The notes under the pieces are model-generated. The model was not told the DNA's origin and searched no databases. It was given only the letters and a program-made list of their open reading frames with translations. Source: an uncultured Pseudomonadota bacterium (GTDB lineage Bacteria; Pseudomonadota; Alphaproteobacteria; JACZXZ01). Taken from it: a stretch of DNA of 64,000 nucleotides. The DNA lies in assembly GCA_963749075.1 (NCBI GenBank), contig CAVVLJ010000020.1, positions 672,001 to 736,000 on the forward strand, written 5' to 3'. Positions 9,136-25,321 of this stretch are shown here, piece after piece. The number at the start of each line of letters is the position of its first letter. Position 1 is the stretch's first letter. The position numbers and the translations under genes were made by a program.

Positions 9136-10719
9136 TCACACCGGCGAGAGCGCACAGAGGAGATAGGGGAGATAGCCGATGTTGGAGGGCACCAGGCGGC
9201 ACTCCCGGCTCTCGATCCTGAGATGGTAGGCGGCGAGGTGCTGCTTCGCGAATGCGGCCTCGTTGGGGTTGTAGAGCACATAGAGCGGGCCGCGGTGCGC
9301 GGCTACGATGCGGTGCATCTCGACGTTGAAGAGCACCTGCGGCTGGTAGGGGCCGGTGAAGCCGCTGTGGATGCGCAGGAAGCGCACGGCTGGCGGAAAG
9401 AAGGGGATGAGGTAGGAGAGCGGCTCGTGCCCGGTGATGAGCACGATCGTATGATCCGGATCGGCAAGTGCCGGCGGCGTTGCCGTCACCCAGCGCTCGC
9501 TCCACGGCACGCGGGTCCAGTCGGCCGGCCGCATCGCGGCGGTGACGAGGGCGAGCACCGCCACGGTCGCGAACGCCCGGACGCGCGGCGTAATAGGGAA
9601 GCGCTGAATCGCGAGTGCGATCGCGAGCGGCGCCAGCATCTCGTAGGCGACGAGGTAGCGGTAGATGCAGAGGATGATCGCCCAGGCGATATAGCCGATG
9701 GCAAAGGCGACGAGGAGATGGCGCGAGCGGGCGGCCCTCTCGGGCGCGGGCGCTGCGGCTCCGCGCCAGCTCCGAGCCAGGGAGGCGAGGGCGGCAAGCG
9801 GCAGCAGCACGAAGCAGGCGAGGATGCGCAGGTCGCGGAAATCCACTTCGGCGGTGAGCCGGGGGTGCACGAGATAGGCGAAGGGGAAGAAGATGCGCTG
9901 CCGGAGATCGGTGGGAATATAGAAGAACTCGCGGTAGTCCTTGTCGAGCGCCCAGGGCGACTTGAAGATCTGGTTGTCGAAGGGGAAGGCCGGATTGCCG
10001 TAGGCCTGCCACAGGTGGTGCATCCACAAGCCCGAGCTGAGTGCCATCCCCATGAGGACGCCGATGCCGAAGAGGAACGCGAGTGCGAAGCGGCGGAAGT
10101 AGCCCGTGGGTGCCGCGAGGAAGGCGAGGCAGAGACCGAGCGCCAGCGTCACGATCGGCTGCTTGAGCCCGACGGCGATGCCGCACGCGAGCCCGGCCGC
10201 GACGAGGCCCGGTGCTAGGCGGCGCCAGGCGCCGCCGAGAACCGTCTCGTAGCGCCGGAGGATGAGCCAGAGTGCCGTGAGCGGTCCCAGGCTCACCACA
10301 TTGTCGTAGAAGGTGGTGCCGAGCTCGGAGAGTGCTCCCACCCCCAGCAGGCCGAGCAGCGCCACGCCCGCGGCGGCGAGCCGGCGGCGCGACGGCGAGG
10401 CGATGGCGAGCGTGGCGTGGGCGATGCCGTAGAGCGGCAGGACGTTCAAGCCCTGCACGGTCGCGAGGAGGAAGCCCACGAGGCGCGCCGGCCAGACCTG
10501 CACCGCGAGGAAGAACGGCACGTCGATGAGGGGGTTGAAGAAAGTGGCCACCTGGGCCGCCAGCACGTCGTAGCCCTCGCGCCCGGTGAGCCAGGCATAG
10601 GCATTGTAATAGTGGTAGTTGCGCAGATCCCAGTTGGCGTCCATGCCGAGCGCCAGGGCCGCGAGGCCGCAGGCGGGCGGCGTCGCCAGGAGGAAGATCG
10701 CGACTGCCGTGCGGCTCAT
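9136..10719 (-). CDS. Polytopic membrane protein, probable GT-C-fold glycosyltransferase-like
   Basis: Many hydrophobic segments; DANWDLRNYHYYN, GLKQ, YGNPAFPF and YRY motifs resemble GT-C membrane proteins (inference). Confidence 0.55.
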   Translation of the reverse strand: MSRTAVAIFLLATPPACGLAALALGMDANWDLRNYHYYNAYAWLTGREGYDVLAAQVATFFNPLIDVPFFLAVQVWPARLVGFLLATVQGLNVLPLYGIAHATLAIASPSRRRLAAAGVALLGLLGVGALSELGTTFYDNVVSLGPLTALWLILRRYETVLGGAWRRLAPGLVAAGLACGIAVGLKQPIVTLALGLCLAFLAAPTGYFRRFALAFLFGIGVLMGMALSSGLWMHHLWQAYGNPAFPFDNQIFKSPWALDKDYREFFYIPTDLRQRIFFPFAYLVHPRLTAEVDFRDLRILACFVLLPLAALASLARSWRGAAAPAPERAARSRHLLVAFAIGYIAWAIILCIYRYLVAYEMLAPLAIALAIQRFPITPRVRAFATVAVLALVTAAMRPADWTRVPWSERWVTATPPALADPDHTIVLITGHEPLSYLIPFFPPAVRFLRIHSGFTGPYQPQVLFNVEMHRIVAAHRGPLYVLYNPNEAAFAKQHLAAYHLRIESRECRLVPSNIGYLPYLLCALSPV

Positions 10720-13768: not shown

Positions 13769-14381
13769 TCAGCCTGCGAGATCGTCGGTCTTCTTGCGGA
13801 TCGCCGAGATGAGGGCGTCGACCCCCTTGTCGCGGATGACGGAGGTGTATTCCGAGCGCCGCGTGGCGAGCTGGGAGATCGAGCCGTCGAGAAAGACGTT
13901 CGATCACCTGGTAATTGCTGTCGCCGTCGGCGCGCAGAAGATAGTCGATGGGAACCTTGTCGCCGTCGGACTTGACGATCGCGGTATAGACGATGATGTC
14001 CTTGCGCGGCGTCTCCTTGATGCCGCTGGTGACGAACTTCTCGCCCTCGTAGCCGGGGAAGTTGTGCGCGTAGTTCGCGACGGTGAAGTTGCGGAAGGCG
14101 TCGACCAGCGCCGTGCGCTGAGCGGCCGTCATCGAGTCCCAGTAGGAGCCGACGCTCGTCTGCGCCATCAGCGCCACGTTGAAGGTCTTCTCCACCCACG
14201 GCTTGAGGAGCTCGTAGCGGCCCTTGTAGCCGAGCCTGGCGCCGTTCTGCATGGCGTTCATGAGCTGCGCGTAATAGCTCTCGATCACCTGCTTCGGTGC
14301 ATCGGGGGCGGCCGCGGCCGCGGCGGAGAGCGTGGCGGCCACGGCGAGGGCGGCCAGGAGAGCTTTCAGGCGCTGCAGCAT
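13769..14381 (-). CDS. hpnM: HpnM/MlaC (Ttg2D)-like periplasmic lipid-binding protein (+1 frameshift near 13900)
   Basis: Signal peptide; F...TVANYAHNF; repaired C-terminus VIDVFLDGSISQLATRRSEYTSVI; divergent from hpnN. Confidence 0.8.
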
Positions 14382-14670
14382 CGGAATCCCAAGGTTGTTC
14401 GCAAGACGACGCCGCATCGTGCGGATGCCGCTCATTCCTCAAATTAAGGACTCGATGGCGCGGCGGCAATAGGGTCTCCTGCGCGGCGCGCTGCGTCAAG
14501 CCCGCTCAACCTGCGGCGGCAAGCGGCTTCCGCCGATTCGGCGCGTGCCGCATCCGGGCACCGACGTTCGCCATTTGTCCGCACGGCCGCGCGGCGCGGA
14601 ACTCGGCGCCGCGCGCGCCCGCGGCGCGTTCCGCAGCGCCTCGGCGGCGGCGCCCCGCGGCAATATTGGG

Positions 14671-14699
14671 CTTGTGGATCGCGGCGCGCGCCGTTATAT
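14671..14699 (+). promoter_or_regulatory. Putative sigma70-type promoter of hpnN copy 1
   Basis: CTTGTG-N17-TTATAT, similar to the alphaproteobacterial CTTGAC-N17-CTATAT consensus; conserved upstream of copy 2. Confidence 0.55.
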
Positions 14700-14770
14700 C
14701 CAGTGGCTCGCGGGCAGGGCACGCTTGGCGTTCGCGCCGCATTCGGCCGCTCGGGTCCGATTCCTCCAAC

Positions 14771-17484
14771 ATGCGAGTCGCAACACCAGTGCACGCCGAA
14801 GTCCCGGAGCAGCGTCCCAGGCGAATGGCGATATTGCCCGGGCGGTGGTACCGCCTGAGGACGGCCATGGTCGCCATGGCGCTCTGCTGGTGGGTGGAGC
14901 GCGTGCGGCGTCTGGCCTGGCCGGTCGTCATCGGCTCCGTTTTGCTTGCGCTTGCGGGCGGCGTCTACACCGCCAGCCATCTCCGCATGAACACCGACAT
15001 CGACGCCCTGTTGTCCCCCGATCTGCCCTACCGCAAGATATTCAAGGCCTTCGAGGAGGATTTCCCGCAGATGCGCGGGAATCTCGTGGTCGTCGTCGAG
15101 AGCGACGGCGCCGAGCGCGCGGAGAGCGCGGCCAAGGCGCTCGCCGCCAAGTTCGCGGCCGACCACGCGCTCTTCGAGGACGTCTTCTATCCGATGGGCG
15201 ACCCCTTCTTCCACCGCGAGGGTCTGCTTTACCTCAAGTCCGACGAGCTGCAGCAGTTCGCCGACCGCATCGTCCAGGCCAAGCCGCTGCTCGTCACCTT
15301 CGCCTTGGACCGCAGCCTGCGCGGCTTCTTCGGCGCGCTCGGCGACGTGGCCGAGGGCGTCAAGCTCGGCAAGCTCGATCCGGCGCTGCTCGCGCACCCG
15401 CTCGGCGCGATCGCCCAGACGGTGGAGGGGCAGATCGACGGCAAGTCGGATCCCTTGAGCTGGCGCGATCTCGTGGCCGCGTCGCCCGGCAAAGCCTCGG
15501 ATCGGCGCCAGATCATTCAGCTCAAGCTCCACATCGACCCGCAGTCCTTGTCGCCGGCCGTGACCGCGATCAAGGCCGTGCGCGCCACAGCGGCGGAGCT
15601 GGGCCTCGATCCGGCGCACGGCGTGCGCGTGCGCATCACCGGCTCGCCGGCGCTCGACGAGGACGATCTCAAGACCGTGAGGGACGGCGTCGGGCTGGCG
15701 AGCGCGGTCTCGCTCGTGCTCGTCTCGATCATCGTGTTCCTCGGCCTGCGCTCGCCCCGGCTCGTCTTCGCGACCCTCGCAACGCTCGTGCTGAGCCTGG
15801 TGTGGACCGCCGCCTACGCGACGCTCGCGGTCGGCTACCTCAACATGATCTCGGTCGCCTTCGCCGTGCTCTTCATCGGCCTCGCGGTCGATTTCAGCAT
15901 CCAGTTCGGGCTGCGCTACAAGGAGAGCGTCGACCGCGGCTCGCCGACCCAGGCGGCGCTCAGGGAGGCGGCGGGCGGCACCGGCGTCGCCGTGACGCTT
16001 GCCGCGGTGTGCGCCGCGATCGGCTTCTTCGCTTTCGTGCCGACCGACTACATCGGCCTCTCGCAGCTCGGCATCATCGCGGGCGGCGGCATGTTCATCG
16101 GGCTCTTCGCCACCCTCACGCTGCTGCCGGCGATCCTCACGCTCCTGCCGGTGAAGCCGAGCCGGCGCGCGGTCGAGAACAGGAAGGGCTATGCCGCGGC
16201 GAGGCTGCTCGAGCGCCATGCCCGCGCGGCGTGCCTGGGGGCGCTCGCCGTGGGCCTCGTGGCGCTCACATCCTTCCCGTGGGTGCGCTTCGATATCGAT
16301 CCCATCAACCTCAAGAGCCCCGACAGCGAGTCCGTCCAGGTCTTTCGCGACATGACCAAGGATTCGCGCACCTCGCCCTACTCGATCAGCATCGTGACGC
16401 CCAATCTGGGGGCGGCCGATGCGCTGGCCAAGCGGCTCGACAAGCTGCCCGAGGTCGCCGGAACCGTAACCCTCAGCTCCTTCCTGCCCTCGGACGAGGA
16501 GGCCAAGCTGCCCGTCATCCGGCGCATGGCGGCTTCCGTGCTGCCCATCCTGCAGGCACCCGAGCGCCGCAGTCCGCCGAGCGGCGAGCGCCGCCGCGAC
16601 GCGACGGAGGAGGCGGGCACCATGCTCACCGGCTTGGCGAACCTGCCCAACGCCGGCGCCGCCGCGGCACCGGCGCGGCACTTGGCCGAGGTTCTCGCCC
16701 GCTTCAACGAGGGCCCGGGCAGAATCTCGATAGCTATGGCGGCCTCGAGAAGGCGCTCGTCGCGAGCCTGTCGGGCGAGCTCGACGGCATGGCCGGCCTG
16801 CTGCAGCCGGCGGCCGTGACGGCGGCGGAGCTGCCGGCCAACATCCGGGCGCGCTACGTGGCGGACTCCGGCCGCGCGCGCATCCAGGTGTTCCCCGCGG
16901 AGACGCTCAACAACGAGCGCGCGCTCAGCCGCTTCGTCACGGCGGTGCGCGCCGTGGCGCCCGATGCCACCGATTCGCCGGTCGAGCTCTACGAGGGCGG
17001 CCGGATGGTGGTCGGCGCCTTCGTCGAGGCGGGCGTGATCGCGCTCGTCGCCATCAGCCTGGTCCTCGTCCTCGTGCTGCGCAGCCTGCTCGATTCGCTC
17101 CTCGTGCTGCTGCCCTTGACGCTGGCCGCGGTGCTCACGGTGGCGGTCGTCGTGGTGACGGGGCATTCCTTCAATTTCGCGAATATCATAGCGCTTCCGC
17201 TGCTCTTCAGCTTAGGCGTCGCCTTCGGCATCTATTTCGTGATGCGCCACCGCGAGACCCCGGGACTGGTGGACCTCATGCACACCAGCACGCCCAGGGC
17301 CATTCTGTTCTCGGCGCTGACCACGATGGTGGCGTTCTCGAGCCTCATGCTGTCGAGCCACCGCGGCACGGCGAGCATGGGCTTTCTCCTCGGCGTCTGC
17401 TTGACCCTCGCACTCGTCTGCACGCTCACCGTTCTTCCAGCACTCCTCACCTGGCGCGCGCAGCGCCGCGGGGCGCGGCGCTAG
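14771..17484 (+). CDS. hpnN: Hopanoid RND/MMPL transporter HpnN, copy 1 (one base missing near 16720)
   Basis: FFHREGLLYL, LNMISVAFAVLFIGLAVDFSIQF, NFANIIALPLL, SSHRGTASMG; two frames join near 16720; colinear with copy 2. Confidence 0.88.
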
Positions 17485-17672
17485 CTTGGATTTCCACGGA
17501 ACACGGTTTGCCTAACGGCTCGCTTCATTCAATAAAATTGCCAGAGGCATTTTGTGCTGTGTGTGAACCTACGTTGGGCGACCATCGAAGACCGCCCCGG
17601 TCCGGTCTGCCAGCTCAAATCTCGAATGGAATGTCACCGTACCGCCGGCCGCGATCGGCGGTTTCGGCGCGG

Positions 17673-18608
17673 TTACCGGCTATTAGCAATGAGAGCTGGG
17701 AGTCGTCTGACGGCGACGCCGAAGGTTAGCAGATCGTAGCTGTTGCAGAAGCTCTCGAAGCGGAACTCCCAGACCTCACCATTCGCGTCCTGGAGCGGGT
17801 GGCTCGCATCGCCAGTCGGGCCCTTTGAGCGGAAGTCAACGTAGGAACGTACTATGCGGTAGATATCTGCTCCTAACAGATGCGGGAAAGCTCGTCGGAA
17901 TCCACGCGATCGGATGAAGTGTCGGCAGTTCCCTCCATCCGATGCTCCACCGATATGCGGATGGCGCGGATGACGGCTAATAAGCCCCACGACCGGGTGA
18001 TCTGGCTCGCGCTCCTCGATCATATGCCAGAGCGTGGTCGTGATTGTGTTGCCATAGCGCTTCTTGAGCTCATGAATTGCAGTCCAACTTAGCTCGCCAT
18101 CACGCGCCTCATTCGCGAATTTGTCCAAGAGGAACAGGAGCTGACCAGCGCCGTAATTCGCTTCGGCCTCGATGACCATGTGACATGCTGGGTCGAGTGT
18201 TAGCTCGTTGTCGCCCCGCAGGAAATCGCGGTGCCATGGCGTGATGTCATGCGTGATCTCATGGGCCTCGATATGCCGTTGCTTGGGTGTCGGCACATCA
18301 TCATCGATCAAAATCCGCCGGTCCTCTTTGAACAGGAGCGCCCGAAGCCCGGCCTTCTGTATCACCTCGATCATTCGGGTTGGTTTTCGAATCAGGCGTT
18401 TCCCACCGACCCTTAGTCGATGGGACACCTCGTCAAACAGTGATAGATCGGTCTTGCTGTAGTAGCCGAGATCCAGCTTCAGAAGCTCGCGAACTTCTCC
18501 GAGGAGCAATGGCGGTTCTGGCTGGCCGAGATCGCGCAAGATGCGTGCAATTTGCCGCCGAATGTCCTCAGCTGAATATTCGTCGATTTCCGGATCCTCA
18601 ATCGGCAT
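17673..18608 (-). CDS. ImmA/IrrE (CapP-like) zinc metallopeptidase
   Basis: R.R...AHEITH (HExxH) followed by EAEANYGAGQLL; overlaps the HTH gene stop. Confidence 0.85.
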   Translation of the reverse strand: MPIEDPEIDEYSAEDIRRQIARILRDLGQPEPPLLLGEVRELLKLDLGYYSKTDLSLFDEVSHRLRVGGKRLIRKPTRMIEVIQKAGLRALLFKEDRRILIDDDVPTPKQRHIEAHEITHDITPWHRDFLRGDNELTLDPACHMVIEAEANYGAGQLLFLLDKFANEARDGELSWTAIHELKKRYGNTITTTLWHMIEEREPDHPVVGLISRHPRHPHIGGASDGGNCRHFIRSRGFRRAFPHLLGADIYRIVRSYVDFRSKGPTGDASHPLQDANGEVWEFRFESFCNSYDLLTFGVAVRRLPALIANSR

Positions 18609-19143
18609 TCTTCTTCCAATGCTCCTTGTATTCGCTAAGCAACTTGATGAATTCGTTCAGGCGTTTCCGCTCATCTCGGCTTAGCTTCGATAAGTCGTCC
18701 GAGCTGGCAGCAAACCGGACCGCCGCCTTCTCAAGATTTTGGTCACGCTCGGCAGCTGCTGGTGAGAGAACGAGAAGTGCCCGTGGCGGCAATTTGAAAT
18801 GAACGGCGAGCTGGTAAATCGTCCGCGGTCTCGGGACGATACTGCCGTCTTGCTCGAGCGCGCGTAGTTCTCCTTCGGGTACGCGGACGACCGCAGCAAG
18901 TTGCGCGATATTCAGATTGTCTCGCCGACGCAACTGCCGAAGCAAAATGCCGAGCAGCACTGCCGGCTGCGCGCTGCTAGCTGGCGCTTTCGCTCTAGGG
19001 CTAGGCGGGGTGCGCGGGGTCTTTTCGGAAACAAAGGCCTGTAGGACTTCAGCCTTTGTGATAGGTAGACCGGCGTCGGTATCCAGGTCGGCGTCACGCT
19101 CGATCCGGCTCCGCAGCCATTTGTTTGTGATTCTCATGATCAT
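18598..19143 (-). CDS. XRE-family HTH regulator with N-terminal extension
   Basis: LG.LLRQLRRRDNLNIAQLA...ELRALEQ..P....YQLA..F; paired with the peptidase. Confidence 0.8.
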   Translation of the reverse strand: MIMRITNKWLRSRIERDADLDTDAGLPITKAEVLQAFVSEKTPRTPPSPRAKAPASSAQPAVLLGILLRQLRRRDNLNIAQLAAVVRVPEGELRALEQDGSIVPRPRTIYQLAVHFKLPPRALLVLSPAAAERDQNLEKAAVRFAASSDDLSKLSRDERKRLNEFIKLLSEYKEHWKKNAD

Positions 19144-19153
19144 GTCGTGTTCC

Positions 19154-19787
19154 TCAGCTTTCCGGCGTTTCCAGAAAGGTCGCGGCCTGGTTTGACGAAA
19201 GCTCGAAGTAGCATAATCCATAGCATTGCTGGTCGGAGCCGAAGTCGGTCAACTCCATAACGTCGCGGTAGAATCCCTCCGCGTTCGGCAGGGCATGGAG
19301 ACCGATGCGGCCCTCCAAGCCCTCGTCGAGGCTGAGGTTTACGGCCGCGGCGAAGAGTAGCTGACCTACGCCCTTGTATTTCGGATCGGTAACGAACCGT
19401 GGTCGATTCCAAGGCGCCGTTGCCAGCCGGTCTATGTAGACGCAGGTCCGCGCGCGGGTGGTCAGAGTGACGACTGAATTTTCCACCTTTGCGGACCAGC
19501 ATGAGCCCTTGCGTAAGATCAGCGCACTCGACGCTGTACATCTGAAACAGGAGCGGATTCCGGTAGATTTCGGCCAACCGCCGCCAATCCCAGTGCGCAT
19601 CTTCAGCATTCGCTGCCACGCGCTCAACGGCCGAGGCATTGGCTGGCAATCTGGCTGCGAAAGCGGGTTGCCAGTCACGCTCAAAATCGAGGAGATTCTT
19701 TGCGTCGATCCCATCGAAGAGCATGGCCTCCTCGTACCGCCGGGTTTGACGGTTTAGCAGGTCAAAGGCGCCAAGCCGCGTCTTCAT
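19154..19787 (-). CDS. GNAT-fold acetyltransferase, probable toxin (+1 frameshift near 19445)
   Basis: VYIDRLATAPWNR, KYKGVGQLL acetyl-CoA-binding motif, LHALPNAEGFY; N- and C-terminal halves in adjacent frames. Confidence 0.75.
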
Positions 19788-19996
19788 AGGACCATCAGCT
19801 CAGCTTTTTCTTTGCTCTTGGGGTCCTCGATGAAAACCTTGTCGCCACGCTCTAAACGCTCGTCAACCGACTGATAGAGACGCAACGCCTGACGCAGCAA
19901 CACGGTCTTCGATAGACCCTTGCGAATGCAGAGGGCCTCCAGTGCGTTCATCTCGGCATCGCTCAGATTGAGCGTCATGGTCCGCTTTTCGGTCAC
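19784..19996 (-). CDS. Ribbon-helix-helix (CopG-like) protein, probable antitoxin/repressor
   Basis: MTLNLS.AEM.ALE.L....GLSKT.LLRQAL; GGAGGAG RBS before GTG; ATGA overlap with the GNAT gene. Confidence 0.8.
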   Translation of the reverse strand: MTEKRTMTLNLSDAEMNALEALCIRKGLSKTVLLRQALRLYQSVDERLERGDKVFIEDPKSKEKAELMVL

Positions 19997-20021
19997 GGGG
20001 CTTCTCCTCCAGGCCAACGAT

Positions 20022-20095
20022 ATATAGGCGTCGGCATGGATTTTGTCAACATAATTTAGCCGTTGACTAGCTAAAAAATAGCTGTATTTTAGCTA
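20022..20095. promoter_or_regulatory. Divergent promoter region with two inverted repeats
   Basis: Minus strand GTTGAC-N17-CTATAT (20050-20022); plus strand TTGACT-N16-TATTTT (20063-20090); IRs GTCAAC-N11-GTTGAC and TAGCTAAAA-N10-TTTTAGCTA. Confidence 0.65.
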
Positions 20096-20161
20096 TCTAG
20101 CAGTGACCTGCGCCGCTCGGACCATCCGTGCCGGCCGCACACCCTACAGAGGAACAGGCAA

Positions 20162-20947
20162 ATGGAACCGCAGAATCAACCAAACCCAGAGCAAGTTGAT
20201 ACGGACGTACAGAAAGCGGCGGCGGACGTGAAGCAGGCCGTAGCGGAACTCGAGCGAGCCGAGCACGATCTGGAGCGGGCGGAATCCGAACTCCAGGAAG
20301 CCGAGGCGCATCATCACGCAATTCACTTCACCGTCGACGGCGAACCTTGCGAGACGGAGAAACGCGAGATGACGCCGAACGAGATCATTCGAGAGTTCGG
20401 CAACGGTCAAGACGCAACAACCCACTATCTCATTCAGCTCAAAGGGCACGAGAAGATCAGTTACCAGGGCAAAGGCAACGAGCCGGTCAAGCTGCACGAC
20501 GGCATGCAGTTCCAGATCGTCTCGCTAGGGCCGACGCCGGTCTCGGACGGCCCGATTGTGCGGGGGGTTCCGGCCTTCGTCGAGGGCTTGCGCGGACTCG
20601 GCTACGCGTCCGTCGCACTGCCGGGCAAGCCGGACCATGTTGTGATCGACTACTCGGTGCCGGTCGGCCGTTTCGCCGGCCAGCAGATGCGCCTGGGATT
20701 CATCGTGCCGCCCGACTTCCCCGAGATCCCCCCGAGCGGCCCACACGTCTCGCCGCACATCCACCCGATCAAGACCGATGGTGGCCACCCGAACGGTGCG
20801 GTGCACCGATCGCACTCAGAGCCCTTTGAGCGCGGGCTAGGGGGCCTTTGGCAGTATTGGTCGCGCCCTTTGAAGGACTGGGTGAAGGGCAAGAAGACCG
20901 TCGCCGCCTACATGAGCCACATCTGGCGCTTGTGGGCCACGCAATGA
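20162..20947 (+). CDS. Coiled-coil + ubiquitin-like (beta-grasp) + prokaryotic E2-like fusion
   Basis: Heptad segment aa ~12-49; IHFTVDG..MTPNEII..YLIQ..VKLHDGMQF Ubl pattern ending GPTPVSDG; E2-like IDYSVP.G..VPPDFPEIPP..WQYWSR with no Cys. Confidence 0.78.
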   Translation: MEPQNQPNPEQVDTDVQKAAADVKQAVAELERAEHDLERAESELQEAEAHHHAIHFTVDGEPCETEKREMTPNEIIREFGNGQDATTHYLIQLKGHEKISYQGKGNEPVKLHDGMQFQIVSLGPTPVSDGPIVRGVPAFVEGLRGLGYASVALPGKPDHVVIDYSVPVGRFAGQQMRLGFIVPPDFPEIPPSGPHVSPHIHPIKTDGGHPNGAVHRSHSEPFERGLGGLWQYWSRPLKDWVKGKKTVAAYMSHIWRLWATQ

Positions 20948-22366
20948 GCCGCGCAGCCCACTCGGCGGCGATGACAGAGAAGGTGGACCGCGCAGCCCGT
21001 GGCCAACTCTTGCGCATCGACCGCCAGGAAGATTTGTGCTTCGCGCTGTGGCACCCGAGCCGCGGTCGTAGCCGGACGACCGCGCTCATTGAGCGCCTCA
21101 TCCTGCCTGAAGAGGGGGACCGCCGGATTCACGGCAACGCGAGCTTCGAGCCGGCATTTTTCGAGCGCGCGCTCGGCACCGCCACGGCCCAAGGCGCCGG
21201 CTTGGCGCTTCTACACAGCCATCCGTACGGGCGCGGTTGGCAGGGCATGAGCAAGGACAACGTCGTCGCTGAGCAGGGCCATGCCGGGGCTACCTACGGC
21301 GCGACCGGCTCGCCTCTGGTAGGCTTGACGCTCGCTGGCGATGGCACGTGGAGCGCGCGGTTCTGGGATCGCACTGCACCGCGGACATATCCTGGTGCTT
21401 GGTGTGCCACGGTGCGGGTAATCGGCCAACGCCTCGTCACGATGTATAACCCCGCGCTCGCTCCGCCACCGCGACCGACCGACGAGCAGATCCGGACTAC
21501 CTCGGCCTGGGGCGAAAGCAGCCAAGAGGATCTGGTGCGCCTGCGCGTCGGTGTCGTCGGCGCCGGCAGCGTTGGTGGCATTGTTGCCGAGACTTCTCGC
21601 GCGAACCGGCTTCGAGGATGTGATGCTCATCGATTTCGATCATGTCGAGCGCCATAACCTCGACCGCCTGGTCTATGCGACGCGCGCCGACATCGGCGAG
21701 CTCAAGGTGGAGGTGTTGGCGGAGCATCTGCGCACTCGCGCGACCGCCGCGGCTTTCCGAGTCGAGCCAGTAACCGCCGCCGTGTACGAGGAGGAAGGCT
21801 TCCGGGCGGCTCTTGACTGTAACGTCCTCTTTTCCTGCGTCGACCGTCCGTGGGGCCGGTATGTGTTGAACCTCATCGCCTACGCCCACTTGATCCCGGT
21901 GATCGACGGTGGCATCGCCATCCGAACCAACCGGCTGGGCAAGCTGGCTGCGGCCGATTGGCGCGCGCACACCGCCATGGTTGAACGGTGCTGTCTGCAG
22001 TGCCTCGGTCAATACGACCCCAGCTTAGTACAGATGGAGCGCGAGGGACATCTCGACGATCCGCATTACATCGCCAGTTTGCCGAAAGACCTCCCGCTCA
22101 AGGCCCGCGAGAACGTCTTCGCCTTTGCCTTGTCCACCGGTAGCTTCCAGATGCTGCAACTGCTCGCCCTCGCGCTGGCGCCGCTTGATCAGTCGAACCC
22201 AGGCGCCCAGCGCTATCATTTTGTGGGCCATTTTATGGAGCCACCGGCTTTCAGTGCCTGCCGTCCGGGATGCTTGTTTCCCTCGCTCGCCGGGCACGGC
22301 GATTCGAGCGGATTGGCGGTCACGGGTGCACGGCCGATCAGGCCAAAGAATGACGCCAGCCCGTGA
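20944..22366 (+). CDS. JAB peptidase + E1/ThiF adenylase fusion (+1 frameshift near 21594)
   Basis: QEDL and LLHSHP...MS JAB motif; VGAGSVGG, IDFD.VE..NLDRL, SCVD, CLQC...CRPGC ThiF motifs; ATGA overlap with the upstream gene. Confidence 0.82.
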
Positions 22367-22367
22367 T

Positions 22368-22460
22368 GTGAGCGATCCAAGGGTCTACGTCGGCTACGTA
22401 TTCCTCTACTCCTACGGCCTTGAGCGCAGAGTGTTGCTGGACGGCGCCGGTGACGCGCAA
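22368..22460 (+). pseudogene. Fragment resembling a TerB N-terminal domain
   Basis: DPRVYVGYVFLYSYGLERRVLLD resembles the GYVFLYFYGLERR motif of TerB-N proteins; no full gene around it. Confidence 0.55.
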
Positions 22461-22505
22461 AATGCGCCAGGCACCCTCCGCCGGCCGCGGCTGGCTAATA
22501 TTGGG

Positions 22506-22534
22506 CTTGTCGATCACGGCGCCCGCCCTTATAT
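22506..22534 (+). promoter_or_regulatory. Putative sigma70-type promoter of hpnN copy 2
   Basis: CTTGTC-N17-TTATAT preceded by the same AATATTGGG as at copy 1. Confidence 0.55.
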
Positions 22535-22609
22535 GCACGCCTTGATGGCCGGACGGCGCCGAGGGGATGGTGCGTTGCTTTTGGCCGCAACCGGCTGTTC
22601 TCGCTGTCG

Positions 22610-25321
22610 ATGAGCCCTATACCCGTGCAGGCCGAGGTCCCGGAGGAACATCCGAGCGGCAGTGAGGCCGTGCCCGAGCACCGCCGCCGCCCGTTCGGAC
22701 CGCGCATCGCCTGGGCCCTCGGCTGGTGGGTCGAGCGGGTGCGGCGCTTTGCTTGGCCCGTGGTCGTCGCAGCGCTCTTGGCCACGCTCGCGGGCGGCGT
22801 CTACACCGTGCGGAATCTCCGCATGAATTCCGACAGCGACGCGCTCCTGTCCTCGGCGTTGCCCTATCGCCAGACGCTCAAGGCCTTCAGGACGGCATTT
22901 CCAGAGCTCCGGGGCAATCTCGTCGTCATCGTCGACGGCGACAGTCCCGACCGCGCCGAGGACGCGGCGAACGCGCTCGCCGCCAGGCTCGGCGCCGCGA
23001 GCGCGCTCTTCGAGGACGTCTATTTCCCTACCGGCGAGCCGTTCTTCCGCCGCGAGGGCCTGCTGTTCCTCGATAAGAAGGAGCTCCAGGATCTCTCGGA
23101 CCGCCTGGCGCAGGCCCAGCCGCTCCTCGGCGCGCTCGTCGAGGACCGCAGCCTGCGCGGCCTCTTCGGCGTGCTCCGCGAGGCCACGCTCGGCATCGAG
23201 CACGGCGAGGTCGCCCCCACCCTCCTGGTGCGCCCGCTCGAGGCGATCGGGGACACGGTCCAGGCCGGGCTCGAGGGCAGGCCGGCGCGCTTGAGCTGGC
23301 GCGACCTCATGACGGGTCTCCCCGACCGGCCGGCCGACCGGCGCCAGTTCATCCTCGTCAAGCCGCGGCTCGACCACGGCTCGCTCGCCCCCGCCGAGCG
23401 CGCGATCAAGGCCGTGCACGCCCTCGCGGCGGCGCTCGATCTCGATGCGCGGCACGGCGTGCGCGTGCGCGTGACGGGCGGCCCGGCGCTCGACGAGGAC
23501 GATTTGCGCAGCGCGCGGAACGGCGTCGGGCTCGCCAGCATGATCTCGCTCGTGCTCGTCTCCATCATCGTCTGCATCGGCCTGCGCTCGCCCAAGCTGA
23601 TCTTCGCGACGCTCGCGACGCTGATCCTGAGCCTGATATGGACCGCGGCCTTCGCCACGCTAGCCATCGGCTATCTCAACATGATCTCGATCGCCTTCGC
23701 CGTGCTCTTCATCGGCCTCGCGGTCGATTTCAGCATCCAGTTCGGGCTGCGCTACAAGGAGAGCGTGGATCACGGCGCCGGTCTCGCGGCAGCACTCGAG
23801 CGCGCGGCGCGGGGCACCGGCGTCGCGGTCGGCCTGGCCGCACTCTGCGCCGCGGTCGGCTTCTTCGCCTTCGTGCCGACCGACTATACGGGCCTCTCCC
23901 AGCTCGGCATCATCGCCGGCGGCGGCATGTTCATCGGGCTCTTCGCGACGCTGACGCTGCTGCCGGCGCTGCTGGCGCTCATGCCCATCAAGCCGAGCGC
24001 CCGGCCGATCGAGGAGAGGAACCGGCTCGTCGTGGCGGCGTTTCTCGACCGCCACGCGCGGGCGGTGTGCCTCGCGGCACTTGCCATCGGCCTCGTCTCG
24101 CTCGCGGCCGTTCCCTTCGCGCGCTTCGACTTCGATCCCATCAATCTCAAGAACCCGAACACCGAGTCGGTGCAGGCCTATTTGGAATTGACCAAGGACG
24201 CCGGCACCTCGCCCTATTCGCTCAACGTCGTGGCGCCGAACCTCGCGGATGCCGATGCGCTGGCCAAACGGCTCGACCGGCTGCCCGAGGTGGACAGCAC
24301 GGTGACGCTGAGCTCCTTCATTCCGCAGGGCGCCGCGGCAAAGCTGGGGCTCATCGATCAGATGGCGACCTTCCTGACGCCCGTGCTGCAGGAGCCCGAG
24401 CCGAAGCCGCCGCCGAGCGACGCCGAGCGGCGCGCCGCCTCGGAGGCGCTGCGCCAGGCCCTCGTCGAGCTCGCCGTCTCGCCCAAGGCGGGCGCCGTCG
24501 CCGCCTCCGCAAGGCGCCTGGCCGAGCTGCTCGCGCGCTTCAACGACGGCCCCGGCAGGGATCTCGCCGCCTATAGCCGGCTCGAGACCGCCCTCGTCGG
24601 CAACCTGCCGGGCCGTCTCGACAGCCTCATCGACCTCATGCAGGCGGGACCCGTCACCTACGGCACGCTGCCGTACAATCTGCGGGAGCGCTACGTCACC
24701 CCCGACGGCCGCGCGCGCGTCGAGATCTTCCCGGCTCAGAATCTCACCAACGAGGTCGCCTTGCGCCGCTTCGTCGAGTCCGTGCGCACCGTGGCGCCCG
24801 ATGCCACCGGGGCACCCGTCGAGCTCCTCGAAGGCGGCAAGCTCGTCATCGGCGCCTTCGAGCAGGCGGGCGCCATAGCGCTCGTCGCCATCAGCCTGCT
24901 CCTCGTCCTCGTGCTGCGCAGCGTTTGGGACTCCCTCCTCGTGCTCTTGCCGCTGGCGCTCGCGGCGGCGCTCACGGTGGCCCTCGTCGTGGTGACCGGG
25001 CAGGCCTTCAATTTCGCCAATATCATCGCACTGCCGCTCCTCTTCAGCCTCGGCGTCGCCTTCGGCATCTACTTCGTGCTGCGCCACCGCGAGACCCGCG
25101 GGGTCGCCCAGCTCATGCGCACCAGCACGCCGCGCGCGGTGCTCTTCTCGGCGCTCACCACCATGGTCTCGTTCTCGAGCCTCATGGTGTCGAGCCACCG
25201 CGGGATGGCGAGCATGGGCTATCTCCTCGGCATCTGCCTGTCGCTGGCGCTGATCTGCACCCTCGTCGTGCTGCCCGCACTCCTCACCTGGCGCGAGCAG
25301 CATCGCGGGGAGACGCCATGA
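22610..25321 (+). CDS. hpnN: Hopanoid RND/MMPL transporter HpnN, copy 2
   Basis: Intact 903 aa ORF with the same motifs as copy 1; ATGA overlap with hpnA. Confidence 0.92.
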   Translation: MSPIPVQAEVPEEHPSGSEAVPEHRRRPFGPRIAWALGWWVERVRRFAWPVVVAALLATLAGGVYTVRNLRMNSDSDALLSSALPYRQTLKAFRTAFPELRGNLVVIVDGDSPDRAEDAANALAARLGAASALFEDVYFPTGEPFFRREGLLFLDKKELQDLSDRLAQAQPLLGALVEDRSLRGLFGVLREATLGIEHGEVAPTLLVRPLEAIGDTVQAGLEGRPARLSWRDLMTGLPDRPADRRQFILVKPRLDHGSLAPAERAIKAVHALAAALDLDARHGVRVRVTGGPALDEDDLRSARNGVGLASMISLVLVSIIVCIGLRSPKLIFATLATLILSLIWTAAFATLAIGYLNMISIAFAVLFIGLAVDFSIQFGLRYKESVDHGAGLAAALERAARGTGVAVGLAALCAAVGFFAFVPTDYTGLSQLGIIAGGGMFIGLFATLTLLPALLALMPIKPSARPIEERNRLVVAAFLDRHARAVCLAALAIGLVSLAAVPFARFDFDPINLKNPNTESVQAYLELTKDAGTSPYSLNVVAPNLADADALAKRLDRLPEVDSTVTLSSFIPQGAAAKLGLIDQMATFLTPVLQEPEPKPPPSDAERRAASEALRQALVELAVSPKAGAVAASARRLAELLARFNDGPGRDLAAYSRLETALVGNLPGRLDSLIDLMQAGPVTYGTLPYNLRERYVTPDGRARVEIFPAQNLTNEVALRRFVESVRTVAPDATGAPVELLEGGKLVIGAFEQAGAIALVAISLLLVLVLRSVWDSLLVLLPLALAAALTVALVVVTGQAFNFANIIALPLLFSLGVAFGIYFVLRHRETRGVAQLMRTSTPRAVLFSALTTMVSFSSLMVSSHRGMASMGYLLGICLSLALICTLVVLPALLTWREQHRGETP

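Follow-up and report, generated by a model that had tools for sequence, protein, structure and literature searches.

A ribbon-helix-helix and GNAT-fold gene pair at the head of a CapH/CapP-like operon divergent from ubiquitination-like genes

Why would a ribbon-helix-helix (RHH) protein and a GNAT-fold protein be encoded at the head of a CapH/CapP operon, between the repressor gene and a promoter region shared with ubiquitination-like genes? The question is raised by a locus in a stretch of 64,000 nucleotides (nt) from an uncultured Pseudomonadota bacterium (Alphaproteobacteria, JACZXZ01; GenBank assembly GCA_963749075.1, contig CAVVLJ010000020.1, positions 672,001 to 736,000, forward strand), which we analysed at its full length and call the window. 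Its positions 17673-19996 hold a minus-strand run of four genes encoding, in 5' to 3' order, an RHH protein, a GNAT-fold protein, a CapH-like repressor and a CapP-like peptidase. These four genes are one operon; the RHH stop and the GNAT start share 4 nt, GNAT and CapH are spaced by 10 nt, and CapH and CapP share 11 nt. On the other side, at a distance of 165 nt from the RHH start and divergent from it, a plus-strand gene for a putative fusion of ubiquitin-like (Ubl) and E2 domains begins at 20162. We consider the chances about even that the operon is the published CapH/CapP damage switch of Bil and Bub operons, extended on its promoter-proximal side by an RHH-GNAT accessory pair dedicated to Ubl operons. 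The features of the locus are the following.

19784-19996, minus strand: RHH protein of 70 amino acids (aa), first gene of the operon (RHH_1)
19154-19787, minus strand: GNAT-fold protein of an unnamed family (homologues, predicted fold), in two frames in the window
18598-19143, minus strand: CapH-like XRE-family helix-turn-helix (HTH) repressor of 181 aa (Pfam HTH, PADLOC capH)
17673-18608, minus strand: CapP-like IrrE/M78 zinc metallopeptidase of 311 aa, last gene of the operon (PADLOC capP, HEITH motif, Foldseek)
19997-20161, no strand: shared divergent control region (palindrome array, promoter-like site)
20162-20947, plus strand: BubAB-like, putative Ubl-E2 fusion of 261 aa with an N-terminal coiled coil (Prok-E2_E, tblastn to the related locus L025)
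20944-22366, plus strand: BubCD-like JAB-E1 fusion (ThiF, tblastn to L025), in two frames in the window

The four genes of the operon

Sequence matches and predicted structure identify the last two genes of the operon as an IrrE-type CapH/CapP pair, transcribed divergently from a ubiquitination-like operon. The CapP-like protein matches the PADLOC capP model (E 4.6e-10) and has an HExxH motif, HEITH, whose H116, E117 and H120 are invariant among 36 sequences; the Pfam Peptidase_M78 model gives no match to the window protein at E<=0.1. In a sequence search of the PDB the best solved match is IrrE (3dte, E 0.004, about 19% identity). The AlphaFold2 model (pLDDT 81.6) has 11 Foldseek matches at E<=0.001, which are exclusively IrrE/PprI (IrrE at 3.7e-6), XRE-M78 regulators of M. 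tuberculosis and the Thauera CapP 7t5t (5.8e-5), and the best structural and sequence matches include 3dte and 8sln, the latter with single-stranded DNA (ssDNA). CapP peptidases carry a C-terminal GAF/PAS-like sensor domain; the model shows a beta-rich C-terminal domain at residues 206-302, to which PAS/LOV chains match at E 0.03-0.1 only. The CapH-like protein matches HTH_31 (5.5e-8) and HTH_19 (5.2e-6) in Pfam and capH in PADLOC (5.1e-6), with its HTH at about residues 64-121. We place its start at an ATG behind GAGGAA, which gives 181 aa; the longest open reading frame (ORF) extends to 19221. An earlier interpretation made from the letters of the window, hereafter the sequence-only reading, had described four co-oriented genes with overlapping or nearly abutting ends leading away from the Ubl-E2 gene, and an IrrE-type peptidase with a partner HTH protein beside ubiquitination-like genes. 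The former is exact to the coordinate, and the latter is borne out by the PADLOC matches, the HEITH motif and the Foldseek results.

The first gene starts with a GTG at 19996, behind GGAGGA. Its product matches RHH_1 in Pfam (E 1e-5), and the family profile matches CopG (2cpg, 2.6e-4); hence the match is of the RHH_1/CopG type and not to DUF1778, the family of the TacA and AtaR antitoxins. Over 59 aligned sequences the mean column identity is 63%, with 12 invariant columns, and the 20-residue C-terminal tail beyond the DNA-binding fold is conserved. A predicted complex of RHH and GNAT scored an ipSAE of 0.42, against 0.01 for the best control, with partner pLDDT of at least 84 and runs agreeing in 100% of the contacts. 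Of 157 solved complexes, 116 reach the mark applied to such predictions, as do 2 of 215 mismatched pairs; at scores of 0.60 or below, those reaching it are 18 of the 157 solved complexes and both mismatches, so that passes in this range are more often wrong than right. The prediction thus lends weak support to binding of GNAT by RHH, and GNAT may be held by, or co-regulated with, its neighbour.

The GNAT gene is read in two frames in the window, and so is the JAB-E1 gene on the other strand. When aligned to homologues, GNAT switches frame between RADL and VYIDRLATAPWNR, in line with one extra base near 19442, and JAB-E1 switches in the Rossmann-loop region, with an additional base near 21594. 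Of the sampled words, 85% are present in X1, a public soil-metagenome run whose Logan contigs are a single letter short both at 19442 (depth 4.4) and at 21594 (depth 3); over 6.2 kb, only two other single-letter differences separate X1 from the window. Because the X1 contigs omit exactly those two bases, both frameshifts are most likely errors of the assembly consensus. We had at first taken GNAT and JAB-E1 for pseudogenes, a view dropped since the X1 contigs lack both extra bases.

Homologues of the GNAT protein have about 206 aa and no Pfam domain. The window ORF matches Acetyltransf_10 at E 0.092, below the cut-off of the model, and 16 of 33 family members match it at E<=1, the best at 0.0038. 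A PDB sequence search with the GNAT profile returned nothing (best E 1.8), searches of the ESM Atlas gave only unnamed or generic 'N-acetyltransferase' clusters, and PADLOC has no model for GNAT or RHH. The fold was therefore examined on an AlphaFold2 model (pLDDT 92.3) of P0002, the closest full-length homologue. Foldseek listed 308 matches at E<=0.001, with NatD on top and the toxins AtaT and GmvT at about 1e-5, and in VIA-align 820 of 999 chains reached Z>=8, the top being PA3270-type acetyltransferases (Z 14.0, 161 residues, root-mean-square deviation 2.9). The toxins TacT3, AtaT and KacT scored 13.0, 12.8 and 12.4, respectively. In the model, then, the GNAT fold is clear and the subfamily generic, as TacT, AtaT and KacT tie with many other acetyltransferases, including N-terminal ones. 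In an alignment of 58 sequences G139, G141 and Y173 are invariant, K138 being invariant only among 14 close homologues; we take KGVG to be the acyl-CoA pyrophosphate loop and Y173 the motif-B tyrosine. Since this loop and this tyrosine are conserved, GNAT is probably an active acyl-CoA transferase. An elaborated alpha1-alpha2 region bears invariant Trp residues, and the family is acidic, with a median isoelectric point of 5.87 over 58 members, while tRNA-acetylating toxins are basic. It is also large: clustered at 50% identity, it counts 2032 clusters at E<=0.001, or 431 when the limit is set to E<=1e-30. The top 150 representatives all have 158-246 aa, and a search among proteins of 362-2000 aa, of weak evidential value, found no fused or longer forms.

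The control region shared by the two operons holds TAGCTA-like 6-bp palindromes spaced by 11 bp at about 20057-20101. They overlap a plus-strand promoter-like site, TTGACT (20063) followed after 16 bp by TATTTT (20090), the only one in a scan where 1.1 were expected by chance and hence, taken alone, not above chance; a minus-strand TTGACA lies near 20046-20051. Many of 25 related upstream regions, read by eye, show 3-5 units of TAGCTA/TGGCTA or TGGCCA with the same 11-bp spacing and then TTGACA, the unit differing by clade (TAGCTA/TGGCTA in some, TGGCCA in others). Such an array would suit cooperative binding of dimers, whether of RHH, of CapH or of both, and we regard it as a putative operator.

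The RHH-GNAT pair in related loci

We compared 81 loci, the best 80 of 109 metagenome loci and one genome locus, which sort into 71 clusters when grouped at 97% nucleotide identity. A scan of genome contigs with the GNAT pattern gave one locus, L004. Of the 81 loci, 77 have an intact GNAT gene. RHH lies directly upstream of GNAT in 63 of the 66 clusters with room for it, and about 150 nt away in L057 and L066. The sole case without RHH among the 66 is L062 (3025-5166), which has intact GNAT, CapH-like and CapP-like genes and a host-type gene starting 120 nt upstream. Downstream of GNAT, a CapH-like gene is found in 56 of 61 clusters with room and a CapP-like gene in 36 of 42; the other five of the 61 show a PD-Lambda-2_B-like gene, an unassigned ORF or a short flank. 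The RHH-GNAT pair was never met as a free two-gene module.

A Ubl-conjugation operon stands on the opposite strand in 29 of the 39 non-redundant metagenome loci that reach 1.5 kb or more upstream of RHH (28 recognised by Pfam, and L004 by PADLOC BilD at 1e-114). These operons have four architectures: Type I Bub (Multi_ubiq-Prok-E2_E, Prok-JAB-ThiF and usually DUF6527), Type II Bub (Multi_ubiq, DUF6791-ThiF, DUF6527), Type I Bil (strong BilA-D matches in L004, L063 and L075) and a CEHH-type (Type II) Bil-like operon (Metal_CEHH, Prok-JAB, E1-N-ThiF). In Table S1 of PMC11601596, as far as the table was accessible, one or two gene IDs between CapH and the Ubl gene are missing from some Bub rows (two in Oceanicola sp., one each in Kangiella koreensis, Methylotenera versatilis and Sinorhizobium meliloti), and may belong to the RHH and GNAT genes. 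Such gaps cannot name genes, and a DUF6527 census of 400 genomes was used in their place. Among these 400 genomes, sampled from the class of the window, 3 hold the GNAT family, all of them among the 13 with DUF6527. Both genome loci with enough flank are divergent from a Ubl operon, of Type II Bub in L091 and of Type I Bub in L092. Adjacency of the cassette to ubiquitination-like operons, whose rarity would have counted against the sequence-only reading, is thus common.

The type of Ubl operon has changed repeatedly along the history of the GNAT family. A quick maximum-likelihood tree was built from 61 GNAT rows, 26 of them labelled with the four definite cargo types; on it the cargo type changes at least 8 times, against a minimum possible of 3. 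The starred seven-row clade of the window alone includes a Type I Bub operon (the window), a Type I Bil operon (L004) and a locus with no cargo (L009). The cassette shifts between types of Ubl operon, yet it mostly stays with Ubl operons. The regulatory genes can also be exchanged: in L043 (9614-11633), L061 (9629-11648) and L063 (3936-5977) an M78 protein and a 'Beta protein' replace CapH/CapP while the RHH-GNAT pair and the divergent Ubl operon are kept, and in L043 the two replacement genes match PADLOC PD-Lambda-2_B (2.6e-86) and PD-Lambda-2_C (5e-51).

Some of these operons have further neighbours. A kinase-like gene (TCAD9/APH) lies between the JAB-E1-like and DUF6527 genes of the Bub operon in L036 (4834-6357), and L032 (544-1512) and L035 (2811-3755) have a gene with a SIR2_2 domain beside the CEHH-type Bil-like operon and on the opposite strand to it.

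The divergent Bub-like operon and its island

The Ubl-E2 protein of the plus-strand operon of the window matches Prok-E2_E at 1.7e-4 (21.8 bits, under the cut-off of 25) and has no Multi_ubiq match in Pfam, while related loci show clear Multi_ubiq and Prok-E2_E fusions; by tblastn it is 36% identical (1e-24) to the divergent gene of L025. JAB-E1 matches ThiF in its second part (2.6e-20) and at the end of its first part (3e-4), and tblastn aligns its JAB part to L025 at 51% identity (2e-19). On six proteins of the island described below, NCBIfam gave generic ThiF matches only. Two further features belong to this side of the locus.

22350-22613, plus strand: ORF of 87 codons with an internal TerB_N fragment (TerB_N profile)
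17485-22493, no strand: low-GC island between two HpnN paralogues (composition)

The ORF of 87 codons occupies the place expected for BubE and overlaps the end of JAB-E1. Its residues 5-38 match positions 76-109 of the 207 of the TerB_N profile (9.5e-8), and it has the appearance of a remnant truncated at the right edge of the island; a tblastn search with the TerB_N fragment found no match in the 81 loci. A search of all frames of the 5.49-Mb genome (96% complete) at E<=0.01 gave nothing for the BubE family, DUF6527 (PF20137), whereas a control genome was matched. With no DUF6527 in the genome and a TerB_N fragment in the place of BubE, we judge that the Bub arm here is incomplete; it is not a full Type I Bub operon and may not work. 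The sequence-only reading had proposed a six-gene unit of sensor, conjugation machinery and possible effector: the parts are present, but the Bub operon lacks BubE, and related loci have seven genes.

The island has a G+C content of 56-62%, against about 70% in its surroundings, and a search of 40 relatives, 5 of them from its own genus, did not find it. Its right junction is bridged by one X1 contig (22097-22700). No tRNA was found between positions 10000 and 30000 of the window. The flanking HpnN (hopanoid transporter) paralogues, at 14297-17484 and 22610-25321, are 63% identical over 646 residues, and the first has a frame break after about residue 809 (near nt 16724). A repeat of about 56 nt at 22494-22549, found also at 14662-14702, lies upstream of both copies; a third copy stands on another contig at C8:75-130, at the contig end, and X1 contigs have loose ends by the repeat, at 22497 and 22559.

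Possible roles of the pair and comparison with known systems

How could such an operon work? In the reading that we put first, CapH, and probably also RHH on the palindrome array, would repress both promoters, as the families of these proteins suggest. By analogy with the CapH/CapP and IrrE families, ssDNA arising from damage or infection would activate CapP, and cleavage of CapH by CapP would then lead to expression of both operons. GNAT might acetylate a protein amine tied to Ubl conjugation (Ubl itself, E1/E2 or acceptor lysines), as a brake or as a second output. The presence of a conserved enzyme and DNA-binding pair with four architectures of Ubl operon, and with little else, hints at a need common to them, be it a brake, a second output or the marking of targets. 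A more pointed version, which we regard as unlikely, holds that GNAT is a dedicated acetyltransferase checkpoint of bacterial Ubl conjugation, acetylating lysines or N-termini of Ubl, of E1/E2 or of host or phage targets, while RHH ties its level or activity to the CapH/CapP switch; acetylation would then compete with Ubl conjugation, as in eukaryotes. If true, this would make GNAT an unrecognised fifth component common to Bil and Bub and would give a handle on the targets of Bub. The RHH protein would add a two-repressor layout to CapH/CapP damage switches, and the survey itself defines a large unnamed GNAT family.

Several points weigh against a pair dedicated to Ubl operons. The link between GNAT and Ubl conjugation is drawn entirely from gene neighbourhood, and the loci were retrieved with two peptide patterns of GNAT itself, their genes being called as greedy longest ORFs on contigs many of which are short, and scanned with Pfam and PADLOC. 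Ten of the 39 metagenome loci have no Ubl operon and show integrase, TraG, ECF sigma, PIN, NYN or housekeeping genes, or nothing, in its place; no CBASS was found in the 39 loci, nor any other named system in these 10. A nine-row clade of the tree (L065, L068, L074, L076, L078, L080-L082 and L084) has no Ubl neighbour, and the RHH-GNAT pair can therefore exist without a Ubl operon. The loci of this clade carry RHH-GNAT-HTH with or without the peptidase, and their neighbours include ECF sigma, PIN, NYN and restriction-modification genes. In the window itself BubE is missing, and the contigs that speak for assembly errors have depths of 3-4.4 and come from a run that may be the source sample. 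Finally, an antitoxin-like RHH gene upstream of GNAT, overlapping it by 4 nt and carried on mobile islands, is the layout of TacAT and AtaRT, and the fold scores of TacT3, AtaT and KacT (Z 12.4-13.0) lie within about 1.6 of the top value.

These last points suit a classical type II toxin-antitoxin module of the TacAT, AtaRT or KacAT kind placed in a regulator operon, in which GNAT would acetylate aminoacyl-tRNA and block translation while RHH neutralises it and regulates its own expression; the pair would then stabilise the island, or provide a growth-arrest arm once the damage switch fires. The conserved 20-residue tail of RHH, the weak complex prediction (ipSAE 0.42) and the frequent presence of integrases, relaxases or TraG-type genes near the loci go in the same direction. 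On the other hand, no free two-gene module was met and an HTH gene follows in 56 of the 61 clusters, the cargo is mostly a Ubl operon, for which a selfish module has no need, and L062 keeps GNAT without RHH. The GNAT family is acidic (median isoelectric point 5.87), its RHH partner is of the RHH_1/CopG type and not DUF1778, and its matches to toxin folds tie with those to N-terminal and other acetyltransferases. We hold this explanation to be somewhat unlikely. The sequence-only reading had proposed a GNAT toxin, a role that stays hypothetical given a generic fold, an acidic family, the lack of a free module and weak support for RHH-GNAT binding. Because the pair is never autonomous and is tied to Ubl operons, GNAT is acidic, RHH is not DUF1778 and L062 does without RHH, we prefer, at modest odds, acetylation of a protein amine in the Ubl pathway over a tRNA-acetylating toxin.

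Decay could also account for parts of the picture, if the frameshifts of GNAT and JAB-E1 were real, BubE had been lost and the locus retained no function. The two frameshifts in the window sequence, the TerB_N fragment at the island edge, the missing DUF6527 in a genome 96% complete and the broken frame of the adjacent first HpnN copy all invite this view. It is nonetheless quite improbable, as the X1 contigs omit exactly one letter at each frameshift site, RHH, the CapH-like and CapP-like genes and BubAB are intact in the window, and 77 of 81 loci elsewhere hold an intact member of the GNAT family. That the four genes are chance neighbours, or unrelated modules juxtaposed on an island, is hardly credible: RHH, GNAT, XRE and M78 are each common domain types, but across 71 sequence clusters, and also in 3 genomes from other families, they come in this order and with these junctions. 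A CapH/CapP switch extended by an RHH-GNAT pair, the reading that we prefer, leads to the comparison with known systems.

The RHH-GNAT pair resembles TacAT, AtaRT, KacAT and GmvAT in that a small RHH gene is followed by a GNAT gene overlapping it, with fold scores of 12.4-13.0. It differs from them in its CopG-like RHH, which is not DUF1778, in an acidic GNAT of about 206 aa with an elaborated alpha1-alpha2 region, and in nearly always preceding an HTH gene (56 of 61) and usually a peptidase gene. With IrrE/DdrO (PprI, Deinococcus) and ImmA/ImmR the operon shares the logic of a damage-activated protease cleaving an HTH repressor, IrrE being the best match of the peptidase; the two are about 19% identical in sequence, and the operon stands in another context and includes RHH and GNAT genes as well. 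PD-Lambda-2, a module that is not in the window, enters the comparison through L043, L061 and L063, where RHH-GNAT fronts this other M78-type module. The divergent operon recalls Type I Bub (BubAB, BubCD, BubE) in having a putative Ubl-E2 gene followed by a JAB-E1 fusion and divergent from regulators, but no DUF6527/BubE is found in the window or genome, and the domain matches of BubAB are under the Pfam cut-offs.

The closest known arrangement is that of the CapH/CapP pairs themselves. Bil systems have a recently proven antiphage mechanism, and in Bub operons, which are numerous, according to the accessible part of a 2026 EMBO J paper phage protection is not yet demonstrated. CapH together with CapP, placed upstream of ubiquitin-related 6a and 6e operons and divergent from them, appears in the available portion of a preprint (Lau et al. 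2022, 10.1101/2022.04.27.489752), and the accessible texts report the pair in 168 of 544 Bub operons (PMC11601596) and in 25 of 162 CEHH/6C (Type II Bil) operons (PMC10557695). Within the available parts of Lau et al., PMC10557695, PMC11601596 with its supplements and a 2025-2026 study of Bub operons, words for GNAT or acetyltransferase are absent; ribbon-helix-helix wording is likewise unmatched in the three of these four texts where it was tried and in the supplements of PMC11601596. In the open literature, as far as it was accessible, we found no prior description of an RHH-GNAT pair heading a capH-capP operon. The sequence-only reading had not recognised its combination of genes as described; going by the same sources, CapH/CapP divergent from Bub or Bil operons is published, and it is the RHH-GNAT extension, with its specificity for Ubl operons, for which no description was found. 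The operon of the window thus agrees with the CapH/CapP pairs of CBASS, Bil and Bub in encoding an XRE-family HTH repressor and then an IrrE-type M78 peptidase, upstream of and divergent from a defence operon. In contrast to the published pairs, its CapH-like protein is longer, at 181 aa, the RHH-GNAT cassette is met with Ubl operons or alone and never with CBASS, and the RHH and GNAT genes intervene between capH and the shared promoter.

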